From NCBI GenBank assembly GCA_019057635.1, contig DXJL01000206.1, positions 11,112-35,111 of the forward strand: a stretch of 24,000 bases of DNA, read 5' to 3'. Positions 949-16,981 of this stretch are shown here, piece after piece. Source of the stretch: Candidatus Heimdallarchaeota archaeon (GTDB lineage Archaea > Asgardarchaeota > Heimdallarchaeia > Hodarchaeales > Hodarchaeaceae). The translations under genes and the position numbers were made by a program. Each line of letters opens with the position of its first letter. Positions within the stretch are counted from its first letter, which is position 1. The notes beneath the pieces were generated by a model, which was given only the letters and a program-made list of their open reading frames with translations, had not been told where the DNA came from and searched no databases.

Positions 949-1089
949 TATATCGGTGTTTAAAATTGAGTGCGTTCAATTTCTTTTAGAGAAAAAGGAA
1001 GATGATCCTTCTATTGATGAAATTAAGTGATCTAACAAAATAAATGGCAGTATAAAAGAAGTAATGCTAGTGAATAAAGAACAGCAGAG

Positions 1090-1164
1090 TGGACCGGACG
1101 GGATTTGAACCCGTGACCTCCTGATTGCCAACCAGGCGCAACTACCAGGCTGTGCCACCGGCCC
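1090..1164 (-). tRNA. tRNA-Ala (anticodon GGC), no encoded CCA, no intron
   Basis: The reverse complement GGGCCGGTGGCACAGCCTGGTAGTTGCGCCTGGTTGGCAATCAGGAGGTCACGGGTTCAAATCCCGTCCGGTCCA folds as a 75-nt cloverleaf. It has a 7-bp acceptor stem with the Ala identity pair G3:U70. The anticodon stem is CCTGG/TCAGG with loop TTGGCAA. The T arm is ACGGG-TTCAAAT-CCCGT. Confidence 0.93.
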
Positions 1165-11763: not shown

Positions 11764-12627
11764 CTACAGTGGTTCATAAGTTACCGATAGGCTTTCTATT
11801 GCTAAAATGCTTCCATTATCATTATCAGACAATGTAACAAAAATCAAATAAGGTTCTCCAGGATCAGTCAATTCGGATGAATTCAATTGGAAAAGATCCC
11901 CCTGAAAAGTGATTGATTCGAACCCTTCCAACGTAAAGATATGTGAACTACTGTTGATACTATTCATTATGAAGAATAATCCGCTTGAGGAAGCTACAGA
12001 AAAATCTAACCGCAAATTCATATCCATACTTCCATTATTACTCAAAGAAAAGTTCATCGTTAGTCCTTCCTGACTAAAAACTTGTGATGGATTTAATGAA
12101 ACCAGAGTAGTTGGCCCATAGGTGTCTCCAATGGTTAACACATCAGAGCTGAATGTTTTTGCGGATCTAGAGCTAGTTTTTCCTTGCGGAAACACAGTAA
12201 CTTCAATAAAAATTGTGTCATTCCCAGGAATTAATTCATTCTGATCGATCGTGTTATCGCATGTAAGAGGAATTGTTTCAATGGCTAAACCTGGCAAGAG
12301 AATTTTCGATTGATCCATATACCAACCTAGAATTGGGGTTCTATTGAAATAAAAAAGCGAAAATGCATCAGCAGATATTTCAACGTTTGTTCTTTCGGTA
12401 TTCTGTAAAGTTATATCAAATCTATCAACTTTGATATCACTATCAGTGGTTTCAAAAGAAGAGACGGCTATAACTTCAACACCTAAAGGATCAGGAGCAT
12501 TAATGGTACCAAACATCACTAAGGCAACTCCTAATCCAGCAACTACTACAAGTCCAATTAAAAGAACAGTGGCAATTACAGGACTAATTCCTCTTTTTGT
12601 TTTTTTAGTAATAAGCCAATTCTTCAT
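11764..12627 (-). CDS. Archaeal type IV pilin-like protein (class III signal peptide), secreted or cell-surface
   Basis: The N-terminus MKNWLITKKTKRGISPVIATVLLIGLVVVAGLGVALVMF is the archaeal pilin/archaellin-type prepilin signal (KRG/ISPVIATVLLI). The rest is S/T/N-rich and beta-like with N-x-S/T sequons. The ATG at 12627 is preferred over the GTG at 12642. A TTTAAAAA box lies about 20 nt upstream, suggesting a leaderless or short-leader mRNA. Confidence 0.8.
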   Translation of the reverse strand: MKNWLITKKTKRGISPVIATVLLIGLVVVAGLGVALVMFGTINAPDPLGVEVIAVSSFETTDSDIKVDRFDITLQNTERTNVEISADAFSLFYFNRTPILGWYMDQSKILLPGLAIETIPLTCDNTIDQNELIPGNDTIFIEVTVFPQGKTSSRSAKTFSSDVLTIGDTYGPTTLVSLNPSQVFSQEGLTMNFSLSNNGSMDMNLRLDFSVASSSGLFFIMNSINSSSHIFTLEGFESITFQGDLFQLNSSELTDPGEPYLIFVTLSDNDNGSILAIESLSVTYEPL

Positions 12628-12923
12628 TGTTTCACATCTCACATCTTTTTTTAAATAGGGGTGATATTTACATAAAGGGAGAAATTAGTAAAGGAAATTC
12701 AACGAAATTGAAAATCAATCGTATTATGATCTTTGTCCAAGTCTTCTCTTTTTTATCTTTCCTAACAAACATAAATCCTGATTCTGATTTTTCTCCTTCA
12801 ATTTTCGTAAGTTCATTTTTTAGTCTGTTATTACTGGAATAATTTTAAGATTCGCTCATTTTCCTTATCGATAGTAAAATAATTGAACCGGAACATCAAT
12901 AAAGTTATCAGCGCAAAGCTTTT

Positions 12924-13020: not shown

Positions 13021-14859
13021 TTACCATCGTGAAAAACCAATTCCACAAGTTTCCGATATAAGTAACAAGAATAAAGCAATTTCCTCCATTTCTTGATTTG
13101 ATTCTGATGCAACAAACACAACTCCTTCTCCCTGATATAATGGTTGCATAATCATTGATAGTATTGCATCTAACGTTTTACCCAGAGTCCACAAAGCTTC
13201 TGTTTCAATTTGCTCACGAATTTCTTTTTCATAAATGAAAGTCTTAAATTTTGACGGAATTTTTTCCTTAATAAAATCACGATTGGGAGGAATTACCAAA
13301 ATGGCTCCTTCTCTTGGTATGTTAAATCTTGAAGATAGTGTTTTAATATTCAGTTCTACTTGAGTAAGATATTCTACGATGCTTAGCCATAATATTCCCC
13401 GTAAAGCAATTTTTTCATTTTCAGAAGAAACCCCTAAAGACACTGAACGTTCGTTGATTTCTAGGCTTCCTTCAACCCTTGCTGCTAAGTCTTTTAACGA
13501 ATCATTTATGCTTTCGAGTCTTGGTCCATATGTAGAGATATGATATTCAAAGCGATCACGCTTGCGGAACAAACTAACTGTAATGTTTGATTCACTAGAA
13601 GGTACAACGCTTGTTGGTGAGAGTTCAAGGGCCATGGGTGATGTATCTAGAACTACTGGAATGTCAGCGAAATTGTATTGTAAACCGCTCTCTCTGTTTT
13701 TCTGTAGTTTGGCTTTAAGTCCGGGACTTAAGGCCTCTATCGTGATAGAGCGTTTAATAACAGGTTTAACTATCGGTTGTTTTGTTGGAATTGCATCTGG
13801 CTCAGAATCTAGTTCAATAATAGGTGGTGGTGTGGTTTCTTCAATCGCTGGAGTACCAATTGATGAGGATTGTGTCTGTAACTTATCTCTTCCAACAACT
13901 AGTTCTTGAAGTTCGGGAGGTTCCGTAGTTTCTATTTCTATTGATGGAGGAGTAAGTTCTCGCATCTTATACATGACTGGAGCTGACATTGTTACTACAA
14001 TGTCTTTTCCAGGTTGTATTACTGTTGATAGTAATACATTGTTTCTGAGATAATTATCCTCACTTGAGGGAAACAGTGCCATGGATTGAGCTATCTCTCG
14101 GGCATCCTCATTATCAATGAATTTTCTCATTTTTGCTGTATTGGTGTTCTCACCAAAAATTCTGCTAAGGACGTCATAAACATGCTCTCCTGCATTTGCA
14201 GAAAAATACTGTTTGAGAGGTGATTCCAAACCGAAAATCAATATATTATCATTTTCCTCAACTCCAGGTATAGGAGTAAACGACAGAACTCGCGAAGTCT
14301 TGGAAGCATCTATAATGGATAAAAGATCGCTTGTGTCATTTGGGTCGATGAAAACCAGTCTGGACACGACACTCTCAACCCCATATCTCAGATCATGAGC
14401 AAAAGCTGTAAGTAATACCAAAGCAGAAAGCATGCCATCTGGTGTTCGAGGAATGACATATATAGAATTTGCAGGAGATGTCAATAATTGATAAAAGGTA
14501 TCTAACTGTCTATTTTGAGCATCTAAGACATTTCCTTCCAGAAATTGTTCTACCAATTTTAATACAATTCCCATGGTAGGTACTACTTGACGAGCACTTT
14601 TCTCTATAGGGATCAGCACAATTGCTACAAGATCGTCAGTTCTTCTTACCTGTGGGAATAAAAATACCATCCGATGATTGGCAAATCTAATAAAGTGAAT
14701 TCTTTCACCTCCCATAATCTTCTTTGAAAAAAGGGTGAGAACTTGGGTAACTGTTGCACTGATTTTTGAGTGTCGAGATAAAAGACCTTTACCGGAGCTA
14801 AAAATTACTCTATTTTGGTGAACGACAAGGAGATCGGTAGAACCCATTTGTGTATCCAT
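13021..14859 (-). CDS. Large multi-domain protein with N-terminal Roadblock/LC7 (MglB/longin-like) domain(s), Pro-rich linker and C-terminal alpha/beta domain
   Basis: 612-aa ORF with an ATG start. Residues ~8-105 (LLVVHQNRVIFSSGKG...SATVTQVLTLFSKKIMGGERIHFIRFANHRMVFLFPQV...LVAIVLIPIEKSARQVVPTMGIVLKLVEQF) follow the Roadblock pattern beta-alpha-beta-beta-alpha. A second similar segment lies at ~130-175. The linker at ~300-370 is rich in P, E, T and I. The domain call is by eye only. Confidence 0.8.
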   Translation of the reverse strand: MDTQMGSTDLLVVHQNRVIFSSGKGLLSRHSKISATVTQVLTLFSKKIMGGERIHFIRFANHRMVFLFPQVRRTDDLVAIVLIPIEKSARQVVPTMGIVLKLVEQFLEGNVLDAQNRQLDTFYQLLTSPANSIYVIPRTPDGMLSALVLLTAFAHDLRYGVESVVSRLVFIDPNDTSDLLSIIDASKTSRVLSFTPIPGVEENDNILIFGLESPLKQYFSANAGEHVYDVLSRIFGENTNTAKMRKFIDNEDAREIAQSMALFPSSEDNYLRNNVLLSTVIQPGKDIVVTMSAPVMYKMRELTPPSIEIETTEPPELQELVVGRDKLQTQSSSIGTPAIEETTPPPIIELDSEPDAIPTKQPIVKPVIKRSITIEALSPGLKAKLQKNRESGLQYNFADIPVVLDTSPMALELSPTSVVPSSESNITVSLFRKRDRFEYHISTYGPRLESINDSLKDLAARVEGSLEINERSVSLGVSSENEKIALRGILWLSIVEYLTQVELNIKTLSSRFNIPREGAILVIPPNRDFIKEKIPSKFKTFIYEKEIREQIETEALWTLGKTLDAILSMIMQPLYQGEGVVFVASESNQEMEEIALFLLLISETCGIGFSRW

Positions 14860-14901
14860 GGTAATTCATTGGAATATTCTATAAGCTTGCTTATTAAGGT
14901 T

Positions 14902-15606: not shown

Positions 15607-16416
15607 TTATTGCTGTTGTTTCATCATGTGAATAATGATTTCTCTTACGAGGCTTTCTACTGGTTTTATCACGCGATTTACGCTTGTAGGTCTATATTCT
15701 TTTTTCAACCTACCATTTTCATTTACTATTTTACTCCGATCACTACTGGAAAGGAGTAGTTTCAAATCGTCACGTGCCTTCAGGCATGAAACTTCAATAA
15801 TTCTGACCGCTGCATCTCTTAAACTGGTCACTGCACCAGATTCACTCAACAATTTTCCCACTTCAAATGAAGAAATGCGTTGTTCAACGGGGAGGTCCAT
15901 TTTGTTTAGCATAATATGATATGGTAAAGAGCCGCTCGCTAGTTTATCTCCAACAAGGTCATTAATTTCTCGAAGTGCAAATTTATTTTCCTCCCATCTA
16001 GATTTTTCAGAATCAACAACACAAATTAATCCATGGGCTCCTCTTAAGACAACTTTCCTCTGTCCTGAGTGACGTTCCTGACCAGGCACAGTAAATAAAT
16101 GATATTTTAAAATAGGGAGACCTGCACTCGTTCTACCAATTCCAAAAATACCCTGATCAAAGAAAAGAGTGCGTCCTGTTGGATCTTCCAATTTTAAGAA
16201 TTTATAGACATTTTCTGGATCTTCAAGGCTTTTTAACACCTTTGTTATTGTTAAAGCTGTGGTTTTCCCTGCTAGAGTAGGTCCCCAAAATACAATTTTA
16301 ACTACAGGGATTCCTTGGTGATCTCTTTTTATTGTTTCAAAGGTAGATTGTGCCTGCATGGTAAACACCTTGTTATGGATAGGGATGGATGTGTGTATGC
16401 AAAAGAGCTTTTTCAA
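15607..16416 (-). CDS. MglA-like small GTPase (Ras superfamily, MglA/Arf-like branch) with C-terminal extension
   Basis: G1 is VFWGPTLAGKTT. The segments RTLFFDQ and HLFTVPGQERH parallel MglA (RTLFFDF, HLYTVPGQVFY). G4 is LNKMDL. An alternative start at the ATG at 16359 (MQAQSTFET...) is preceded by GGTG and may be the true start. Confidence 0.88.
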   Translation of the reverse strand: MKKLFCIHTSIPIHNKVFTMQAQSTFETIKRDHQGIPVVKIVFWGPTLAGKTTALTITKVLKSLEDPENVYKFLKLEDPTGRTLFFDQGIFGIGRTSAGLPILKYHLFTVPGQERHSGQRKVVLRGAHGLICVVDSEKSRWEENKFALREINDLVGDKLASGSLPYHIMLNKMDLPVEQRISSFEVGKLLSESGAVTSLRDAAVRIIEVSCLKARDDLKLLLSSSDRSKIVNENGRLKKEYRPTSVNRVIKPVESLVREIIIHMMKQQQ

Positions 16417-16420
16417 ATTA

Positions 16421-16981
16421 TTAAGATATATTATCTTTCTCTATAACTTGTTTTGCTAAGCTATGGAAAATTTCAGTAATTTCGGAACCCCCCTCTTTTG
16501 CTGAGGTTTCATAATATGACATATTTAGTTCATCAGCAACTTTTCGGGCATCTTTTTCAGATACTACTCTTTCATCAACGAGATCGTTTTTATTTCCAGC
16601 TAAAGCAATGGGAACAGTTGGTGGGATGTACTTAGTAAATTCGGTTAACCATTTCGGAATCGCCTCGAAAGACTTTTCATCAGTAAGTGCAAACATAATC
16701 AAGCAAGCTGTAGCTCCTCGGTAATAGCTCGGTCTTAATTTGCCAAAGAACTCCTGTCCAGCAGTGTCTACTAAGATTAATTTAACTTGACTGTTATTAA
16801 CCTCAATCTTCTTTGTTGTAATGTCAACACCTAGCGTTGGTAAATAATTGGTTTCGAATTTGTTCTCTGCAAATCTACGGATGAGGGATGTTTTTCCTAC
16901 ACTCCCAGATCCAATTGCACAAATTTTGAGTAAGTATTCATTAGTATTTGTCAAAGATGAAACTCCTATTAATACTGTCAT
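16421..16981 (-). CDS. Rab/Ras-like small GTPase
   Basis: G1 is GSGSVGKTS, switch I is YLPTLGVD, G3 is DTAGQE, G4 is GNKNDL and G5 is ETSAK. There is no C-terminal Cys for prenylation. The ATG overlaps the upstream gene's stop (ATGA at 16978-16981). Confidence 0.92.
   Translation of the reverse strand: MTVLIGVSSLTNTNEYLLKICAIGSGSVGKTSLIRRFAENKFETNYLPTLGVDITTKKIEVNNSQVKLILVDTAGQEFFGKLRPSYYRGATACLIMFALTDEKSFEAIPKWLTEFTKYIPPTVPIALAGNKNDLVDERVVSEKDARKVADELNMSYYETSAKEGGSEITEIFHSLAKQVIEKDNIS

Follow-up and report, generated by a model that had tools for sequence, protein, structure and literature searches.

A gene on the reverse (-) strand of a 24,000-nucleotide (nt) stretch of DNA from a Candidatus Heimdallarchaeota archaeon (contig DXJL01000206.1; the whole stretch is hereafter called the window) codes for a 612-amino-acid (aa) orphan protein. 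Structure prediction points to exactly one longin/roadblock-type domain at its N terminus, followed by a two-lobed module that resembles a degenerate DHH/DHHA1 phosphoesterase. The explanation that we rank highest, at somewhat below even confidence, is that the protein is a non-catalytic scaffold or adaptor built from one longin domain and an inactivated two-lobed DHH/DHHA1-type module. Such a combination of a longin domain with an apparently inactivated phosphoesterase scaffold appears to have no precedent in the structure, family, or literature searches that were conducted. A sequence-only reading of the same DNA had proposed a single chain with several Roadblock/longin modules, comparable to tri-longin or GATOR/Ragulator-like regulators. 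The models contain one module of this type, and it is the other ~500 residues that carry the resemblance to DHH/DHHA1 proteins.

Predicted structure and domain organization

The full-length protein was modeled with AlphaFold2 from a 35-sequence alignment, giving a mean predicted local distance difference test score (pLDDT) of 77. Residues 108-612 were also modeled alone from 46 sequences that include distant members, with a mean pLDDT of 84 and with folded parts mostly >90. The following predicted parts were delineated from these models and the alignment.

14539..14838 (-): D1, longin-type domain, residues 8-107 (strands 9-14 and 17-22, helix 26-49, strands 56-58, 62-67, and 78-84, helix 89-107)
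14185..14529 (-): D2a, parallel alpha/beta domain, DHH-like, residues 111-225 (AlphaFold2 pLDDT 85-95, Foldseek)
13948..14184 (-): D2b, five-helix bundle after D2a, residues 226-304 (AlphaFold2 models)
13738..13947 (-): disordered, acidic Pro/Glu-rich linker, residues 305-374 (pLDDT <50 in both models)
13345..13737 (-): D3a, alpha+beta sub-domain, residues 375-505 (AlphaFold2 models, alignment)
13024..13344 (-): D3b, alpha/beta sub-domain, DHHA1-like, residues 506-612 (pLDDT >90, Foldseek)
nt 13024-13056 (-): invariant C-terminal tail, SE..G[IV][GAS][FWY]SRW-COOH (alignment)

A Pro-rich linker and a C-terminal region of alpha/beta character had been anticipated from the sequence, and both are borne out. 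Residues 305-373 are rich in Pro and Glu and disordered, with pLDDT <50 in both models, and ~240 aa at the C-terminal end are alpha/beta in both. The linker separates the two lobes and varies among homologues in sequence and in length (44-124 aa), with net charges from -1 to -19. Its AEPDAIP motif (residues 352-358) is conserved only among the closer relatives of the protein, hereafter the near clade. Net charges of the whole protein lie between -9 and -38; almost all members have two acidic lobes, and D1 alone is mildly basic. D3a, the least conserved folded part, consists of a helix, two beta-hairpins, a helix, another hairpin, and a long helix (479-502), whereas D3b carries the conserved motif EG[SA]I[LM]LIPP.R. 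No membrane segment is predicted from the sequence of the 612-aa protein.

Each model was compared with the Protein Data Bank (PDB) using Foldseek, and the 50 best matches per model were considered. Because the Foldseek output gave no query ranges, matches were assigned to domains by searching again with the model from which D1 had been deleted.

A single longin-type domain

In the AlphaFold2 model, the elements of D1 are arranged in the order bb-a-bbb-a-a (b, strand; a, helix) with no N-terminal helix; a beta-hairpin starts eight residues in, and two helices close the domain. Judging from this order, D1 appears to be a longin permutation rather than the a-bb-a-bbb arrangement of MglB and LC7. 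The same order is found in longin proteins such as sigma-adaptin and zeta-COP, and in the LD1 domains of Mon1, Ccz1, Fuzzy, and Inturned. In contrast, the Roadblock/LC7 proteins (MglB, LAMTOR, and dynein LC7) are circularly permuted relative to D1, and resemble it in their three-dimensional sandwich but not in sequence profile. Thus, the proposal that the N-terminal ~105 aa form a Roadblock/LC7 (MglB-type) domain holds for the superfold, which is predicted for ~100 aa, but the order of elements is that of longins and there is no Robl_LC7 match in Pfam.

The search with the full-length model returned longin/roadblock structures at a probability of ~1.0, including MON1A/CCZ1, Fuzzy/Inturned, LC7, LAMTOR, sigma-adaptin, zeta-COP, and a Lokiarchaeota longin. 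The best longin matches are to tri-longin proteins (MON1A/CCZ1 9l0d_A and 9lol_B; Fuzzy/Inturned 7q3d_C and 9rs8_A) and extend over 157-204 columns. Other longin matches are sigma-adaptin (6owo_S, 4p6z_S), zeta-COP (9qpq_P), Mon1/Ccz1 (5ldd_D, 7qla_A), and the Loki longin (8yqg_A). Those of the roadblock type are LC7 (8glv_AK, 9e5c_5r, 7kzm_I) and LAMTOR (5y3a_G, 5x6v_B), with probabilities of 0.97-1.0 and TMt values of 0.48-0.58. Template modeling (TM) scores of D1 against longin/roadblock structures are 0.45-0.58 when normalized to these small targets.

When residues 1-107 were deleted, zero longin/roadblock structures were present among the 50 best Foldseek matches. Because these matches vanish with D1, the models indicate that D1 is the only longin/roadblock-type domain in the protein. 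The structural check therefore finds a domain of the anticipated kind, but the count of such units is one. A second similar segment, which was thought to follow the first, is not seen. Residues 111-304 are modeled as an alpha/beta domain plus the five-helix bundle, and a comparison of five segments by hhalign for internal repeats gave a best probability of 2.9%.

Longin GTPase-activating proteins (GAPs) of the FLCN/SMCR8/NPRL2 type carry a GP motif and an invariant Arg in the b1-b2 turn (PMC12290439). In D1 this turn reads HQNR and has no GP, and position 17 varies, with R, K, or N in the near clade and N, S, K, Q, E, or D among distant members. An Arg-finger or GP-motif mechanism for D1 was rejected on these grounds, and the domain differs in both features from the longin GAPs, including the Asgard 'FLCN/SMCR8 longin' proteins. 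The conserved motifs of D1 are SSGxGxL and IHFIRFxNHRM, and R58 is nearly invariant across the family.

A DHH/DHHA1-like module that lacks the catalytic motifs

Among the Foldseek matches to residues 108-612, numbers 1-27 are all DHH-superfamily proteins or the DHHA1-like C-Ala domain of alanyl-tRNA synthetase. The DHH matches come from six sub-families (archaeal RecJ/GAN, RecJ2, PAP phosphatase, NrnA, yeast PPX1, and bacterial RecJ), extend over ~430-560 columns with E values of 3e-4 to 5e-2 and probabilities up to 0.99, and include both lobes in the right order. The same set leads the search with the full-length model, where PAP phosphatase 8a8k is on top (E 1.8e-4, probability 0.99). This structure and archaeal RecJ-Cdc45/GAN (7bhi, 7bih, 5x4i, and 5ght) match over 400-580 columns with TM-scores of 0.13-0.25. 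NrnA structures 3dev and 5ipp are also among the matches. On this evidence, we lean modestly toward a true DHH/DHHA1-type architecture for residues 108-612, and the likeness might well reflect homology rather than analogy.

Archaeal RecJ-Cdc45 (GAN) likewise has two alpha/beta lobes that follow each other in the same order and are separated by extra helical and alpha+beta insertions, and it aligns over ~500-560 columns. NrnA and PAP phosphatase, which are minimal DHH-DHHA1 enzymes, match at the level of the fold, whereas the 612-aa protein is twice as long and lacks DxD, DHH, and GGGH. More generally, the DHH triad, motifs I-IV (DxD, D, DHH, and D), and GGGH are absent or unconserved in the alignments, and no metal ligand is invariant. 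A possible relic of DHH motif I, PR[TS]x[DE]G[IM]L[SA]AL (residues 137-147), lies after the first strand of D2a where DxDG..S sits, and G142 and D156-L are conserved in the same domain. Several members have A, S, T, Q, or I in place of the acidic residue of this relic. A second positional relic might be G-[IV]-[GAS]-[FWY], which comes after the last helix, where DHHA1 carries GGGH. Because the acidic residue of motif I varies and there is neither a DHH triad nor GGGH, the module appears not to be a conventional enzyme, whatever its origin. Nucleic-acid binding was also considered and judged unlikely, given that the whole protein and both lobes are acidic, and protein partners are favored for the same reason.

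Eukaryotic Cdc45 is an inactivated RecJ that is used as a structural subunit; it has lost its catalytic motifs and carries an acidic disordered insertion. The 612-aa protein is similarly devoid of catalytic motifs and interrupted by an acidic disordered insertion, but it has no detectable sequence similarity to GAN or Cdc45, and its longin domain has no counterpart in them. No eukaryotic Cdc45 structure is among the top 50 Foldseek matches, and the neighborhood of the 612-aa gene shows no link to replication genes.

An orphan family confined to Hodarchaeales

A search of 5.8 billion proteins yielded 81 homologues at 42-100% identity, nearly all of them full length (~590-665 aa) and annotated just as 'hypothetical protein'. 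When 1.84 billion cluster representatives were searched with a 35-sequence profile and no word index, 31 proteins were returned, every one from the same family. The most distant full-length members, at 20-27% identity, include OLS22997.1 (from Heimdallarchaeota LC_3) and proteins from several metagenome-assembled genomes (MAGs) labeled 'Hodarchaeales archaeon'. In a pattern scan that included one genome per GTDB species, 20 species-level genomes were found to carry the near-clade form, namely MAGs of Hodarchaeota or Heimdallarchaeota and a few under the labels Thor-, Hermod-, or Promethearchaeota. The closest match among them (96% identity) is from Heimdallarchaeota B3_Heim, which makes the source of the window a close relative of that organism. 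Nearly every family member with a taxon name is from a Hodarchaeales or Heimdallarchaeota MAG, LC_3 and B3_Heim among them, and as far as the searched collections show, the family is confined to Hodarchaeales.

Mean column identity over the 35-sequence alignment reaches 58%, a high value for an orphan of this kind. Conservation is strongest in D1 and D3b, at 70% identity within the near clade and 36-37% against the distant clade; for the remaining folded parts, identity to the distant clade is ~20%. The C-terminal tail is found in every member, including those at 20-27% identity.

No Pfam family matches the 612-aa protein at E<=0.1, and for all 35 members there is no match even at E<=10, including to Robl_LC7, Longin, DHH, DHHA1, uDENN, DENN, and dDENN. 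The protein has no match in NCBIfam, and no PDB sequence was found with phmmer or with a profile hmmsearch. No description of the family was found in the literature, where HeimC3_26940 and OLS22997 are mentioned in no paper, and the family is not described in a paper on the evolution of the Asgard replisome.

These results bear on how the protein should be classified. Compared with known longin/roadblock proteins, it has D1 as a single domain, not as a dimer within one chain, and fused to a ~500-aa non-longin module. Compared with the tri-longin Rab guanine nucleotide exchange factors (GEFs), namely Mon1-Ccz1, BLOC-3, and CPLANE, it has one longin domain rather than three, and two more cannot be reconciled with the secondary structure of D2 and D3. 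Because the defining features of each group were sought and are missing, the protein is not a member of the Robl_LC7 family, the tri-longin GEFs, the FLCN/SMCR8/NPRL2 longin GAPs, or the DHH enzymes.

Gene start and putative promoter

The gene occupies positions 13021-14859 (-) as an ATG-started open reading frame (ORF) of 612 codons plus a stop, and it is a real gene. An identical database protein is 608 aa long and begins at Met5 (nt 14847). The start codon is ambiguous in this region (14845-14859 (-)), where the ORF opens with MDTQMGST, and several homologues also begin at the second Met. One candidate promoter element was read from the sequence.

14877..14884 (-): putative TATA-like TTATAGAA, in the 42-nt gap after Sua5

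Upstream of both possible starts, the element TTATAGAA lies 18-25 nt from the first ATG and 30-37 nt from the second, and might represent a promoter belonging to the gene itself, with a very short leader. Its position fits the second ATG better, and the shorter form (Met5, 608 aa) may be the true one. The 612-aa gene probably has a promoter of its own, which weakens its link to the GTPase genes.

No RNA genes are found near the 612-aa gene by Rfam and tRNA scans. A tRNA-Ala(GGC) gene at 1089-1164 (-) is the sole RNA gene detected in the window by Rfam and ARAGORN.

Gene neighborhood

The neighbors are those described in the sequence-only reading: a Sua5/YrdC gene (209 aa), a 269-aa MglA-like GTPase, and Ras-family GTPases of 186 and 192 aa, with gaps of 42 and 75 nt. 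The best PDB matches of the 269-aa GTPase are MglA structures (E ~3e-18). The following neighboring genes are relevant to the argument.

15607..16416 (-): MglA-like GTPase, 269 aa, last gene of a gelsolin-like/Ras-like/MglA-like array
16421-16981 (-): Ras-like GTPase, 186 aa, middle gene of the array
16978-17889 (-): gelsolin-like protein, 303 aa, first gene of the array
18075..18926 (+): all-helical orphan, 283 aa, without a Pfam or NCBIfam match, candidate partner of the 612-aa protein

The array is tight, as the 303-aa gene overlaps the Ras-like gene by 4 nt and the MglA-like gene begins 4 nt further. The 303-aa protein consists of a weak gelsolin N-domain (Pfam E 0.008), a Pro/Ser/Thr-rich linker, and a conserved C-domain of ~100 aa. 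No stand-alone MglB/Roadblock gene is adjacent in the GTPase array, and the C-domain of the 303-aa protein is a candidate MglB substitute.

Near-clade genomes carry, in succession, Ras, Trm56, SLOG, the 283-aa gene (on the opposite strand), gelsolin-like, Ras, MglA-like, Sua5, the 612-aa gene, a pilin-like gene, and a diphthamide-synthase homologue (on the opposite strand). Nearly all of the 20 species-level genomes share this arrangement. Flanking housekeeping genes, among them Elp3, POR, and NadA, are retained too, so that a whole block of ~20 kilobases (kb) is preserved. Because unrelated housekeeping genes are kept equally well, the conserved order reflects general synteny and says little about a link to the GTPases.

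The 283-aa helical orphan has a broader association with the family. In three of the deep-branching loci (L005, which is from LC_3, L007, and L008), a remote homologue of ~281-300 aa is located immediately upstream of the family gene on the same strand (L005:8946-9848, L007:8947-9792, and L008:5394-6284). Comparison of the 283-aa ORF with its LC_3-type counterpart by hhalign gave a probability of 94% (E 8e-8, 240 columns), whereas 20 column-shuffled controls reached <=2.6%, and the same link is supported by hmmsearch (E 1.5e-8). A profile search with the 283-aa family returned 52 matches from near-clade Hodarchaeales only, and so the LC_3-type link rests on hhalign and hmmsearch. The helical orphan is thus a more deeply conserved neighbor than the GTPases, extending across the deepest split in the family, and is our best candidate for a partner of the 612-aa protein.

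Several other neighbors were recorded. Sua5 is also near the family gene in L005 and L008. A Band_7/stomatin gene (392-402 aa) is located ~1.2 kb upstream of the family gene in L005, L006, and L007, and is not part of the near-clade block. Directly downstream of the 612-aa gene, after a 378-nt AT-rich gap, is a gene for a protein of 292 aa whose N-terminus resembles archaeal type IV pilins (11764-12642 (-)). A homologue of the pilin-N-like protein adjoins the family gene in L009 (4951-5790), accompanied by two more orphans; the near-clade homologues of these two are located ~8-9 kb upstream in L002 and L004. An apparent gelsolin-like neighbor in L009 was rejected as an artefact of Pro/Ser/Thr-rich low complexity; SEG-filtered BLAST kept only N-terminal matches of three other orphan families. 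A 763-aa protein (21364-23655 (+)) has an N-terminal TrmB-type helix-turn-helix domain and a long middle region that is rich in Glu, Lys, and Asn, apolipoprotein-like, and probably coiled-coil. It is found at the same position in L001 and L002.

A possible scaffold and the competing explanations

Longin/roadblock domains are recurrent docking modules for small GTPases, and the longin fold also serves as a dimerization module. From the domain organization we infer a scaffold role, and possibly a GTPase contact. The protein would be soluble and acidic, ~610 aa long, with an N-terminal longin domain, a two-lobed module, and an invariant G-x-x-[FWY]-S-R-W tail. The module would have lost its metal-binding and catalytic motifs, and its halves would be held apart by the long disordered Pro/Glu-rich linker. 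A small GTPase, or else a second longin/roadblock protein, would then dock on the longin domain. Other partners could be held by the C-terminal tail and the rigid lobes of the pseudo-enzyme, with the 283-aa helical protein being the best candidate, and the flexible acidic linker and invariant tail might serve in binding such partners. Because longin/roadblock domains dock small GTPases and the MglA-like gene has no adjacent MglB, a GTPase is a plausible partner, although we consider this clearly short of probable.

Several observations weigh against this explanation. The confidence of the D1 model is only moderate (pLDDT 50-85), and D1 has no significant sequence match to longins. Comparison of the D1 profile by hhalign gave 2% for sigma2-adaptin (AP2S1) and 0.4% for the SEC22B longin, but single template sequences are a weak test, and the D1-sigma2-adaptin register is structurally sensible despite the 2% probability. 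The DHH/DHHA1 likeness is weak and at the level of the fold, with TM-scores of 0.13-0.27 for whole chains. Low whole-chain values are expected in part because a 70-aa disordered linker joins the lobes and leaves their orientation arbitrary, but single C-Ala domains still reach only 0.34-0.47. Furthermore, hhalign against an NrnA profile gave a probability of <1%. This profile, whose bait was verified against PDB 5j21, is narrow, as its 120 relatives are all >=65% identical, and the result is hence uninformative rather than refuting.

The neighborhood data likewise tell against a GTPase contact. The block is interrupted within Sua5 in bin272 (CP070760.1), where only a 136-aa C-terminal Sua5 remnant (L022, 7325-7735) precedes the family gene. 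There is no GTPase within 8 kb, and the upstream genes are those for an ABC transporter, DUF3592, GNAT, and fibrillarin. The GTPase block was moved away by this rearrangement; the locus tags in this genome are JSV04_00730 for the 283-aa homologue and JSV04_03605 for the family gene. No GTPase was found within 8-10 kb, or to the nearer contig end, at any of five deep-branching loci (L005 from LC_3 and L006-L009). The GTPase neighborhood is therefore kept only within one syntenic sub-clade. The proposed association of the gene with GTPases holds for gene order in nearly all near-clade genomes but breaks down in bin272 and in the deep branches, and a link of the 612-aa protein to the neighboring GTPases is weakly supported.

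The most serious competing explanation, which we nevertheless regard as unlikely, is that residues 108-612 are novel alpha/beta folds that have converged with DHH/DHHA1, and that the protein has a GTPase-independent role. For example, it might be an assembly or membrane-associated factor that works with its orphan neighbors (the 283-aa helical, pilin-N-like, and Band_7/stomatin proteins). Low TM-scores and the lack of a profile-level signal fit convergence, and the deep-lineage neighbors fit the proposed role, being the helical orphan in L005, L007, and L008, Band_7 in L005, L006, and L007, and a pilin-like gene with two orphans in L009. However, the near-exclusive enrichment of one superfamily among the Foldseek matches is hard to obtain by chance, the longin fold is one that recurrently docks GTPases or dimerizes, and a membrane-associated factor is at odds with the absence of a predicted membrane segment. 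Less probable again is a functional DHH protein, in the form of a divergent phosphoesterase, nuclease, or (oligo)nucleotide binder of the RecJ, GAN, or NrnA kind that acts on the ends of RNA, tRNA, or DNA and is regulated through an added longin domain. Such a function would be in keeping with the leading Foldseek matches to DHH/DHHA1 enzymes and to the tRNA-binding C-Ala domain. The neighborhood is also rich in genes for the modification of tRNA and the translation machinery (Sua5, aTrm56, Elp3, and the diphthamide synthase homologue), and Sua5 is near the gene even in LC_3-type genomes, with a remnant in bin272. Yet these tRNA-related neighbors carry little weight given the general synteny, motifs I-IV and GGGH are absent or unconserved, none of the 35 members has a DHH or DHHA1 match in Pfam at E<=10, and the lobes and the whole protein are acidic.

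The remaining explanations assign the protein directly to GTPase control. We hold it to be rather improbable that the family is a dedicated Hodarchaeales GTPase regulator or effector of a kind unseen elsewhere, in which a longin domain fused to an inactivated RecJ/Cdc45-like (or proto-DENN-like) alpha/beta-plus-helical module foreshadows or parallels the DENN/FLCN regulators, with MglA- or Ras-like GTPases and a helical-repeat protein as partners. A related and very improbable idea is that the N-terminal 300 residues are a DENN-like tripartite module, an archaeal analogue or precursor of DENN-type GEFs and GAPs, to which the C-terminal half is an unrelated addition. A DENN module consists of a longin domain, then a three-layer alpha/beta domain, then an all-alpha domain (PMC3521125). 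The order and sizes of D1, D2a, and D2b match uDENN-DENN-dDENN as described there, so that residues 1-304 show the same succession of classes as the DENN modules of Rab GEFs and the FLCN/C9orf72 family, and Ras/Rab-like GTPases are nearby in the near clade. However, neither model has a DENN, FLCN, FNIP, SMCR8, C9orf72, or NPRL structure among its 50 best Foldseek matches, although many are in the PDB. There is also no uDENN, DENN, or dDENN match in Pfam, and D2a is claimed, together with D3, by DHH proteins. Least credible of all, and largely refuted as regards its multiple modules, is the original proposal that a multi-Roadblock/longin chain serves the adjacent MglA-like and Ras-like GTPases as a GAP/GEF platform. 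It draws on the tri-longin proteins that head the longin matches, and on a genuine MglA-like GTPase two genes upstream in an array with no stand-alone MglB. Against it, D1 alone is longin-like, and residues 111-304 and 506-612 are parallel alpha/beta plus helices rather than bb-a-bbb-a. In addition, position 17 is variously R, K, N, S, Q, E, or D where a GAP would have its invariant Arg, and adjacency to GTPases is not kept in distant members.

Implications

The view of the 612-aa protein as a multi-longin platform is corrected by these findings, and the 283-aa helical orphan emerges as the better-supported candidate partner. The family is strongly conserved, restricted to a single order, and invisible to every sequence-profile library tried, and its N-terminal domain appears to be of a class, the longin/roadblock domains, that comprises ancestral GTPase docking modules. 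Few known archaea are as closely related to eukaryotes as Hodarchaeales, which are placed at or near the eukaryote root. Should the 612-aa protein bind a GTPase, it would represent a novel kind of regulator, found in the lineage that matters most for how eukaryotic control of membranes and the cytoskeleton arose. Otherwise, the scaffold that we favor would be a second example, after Cdc45, of a DHH enzyme that has been recycled as a structural protein.

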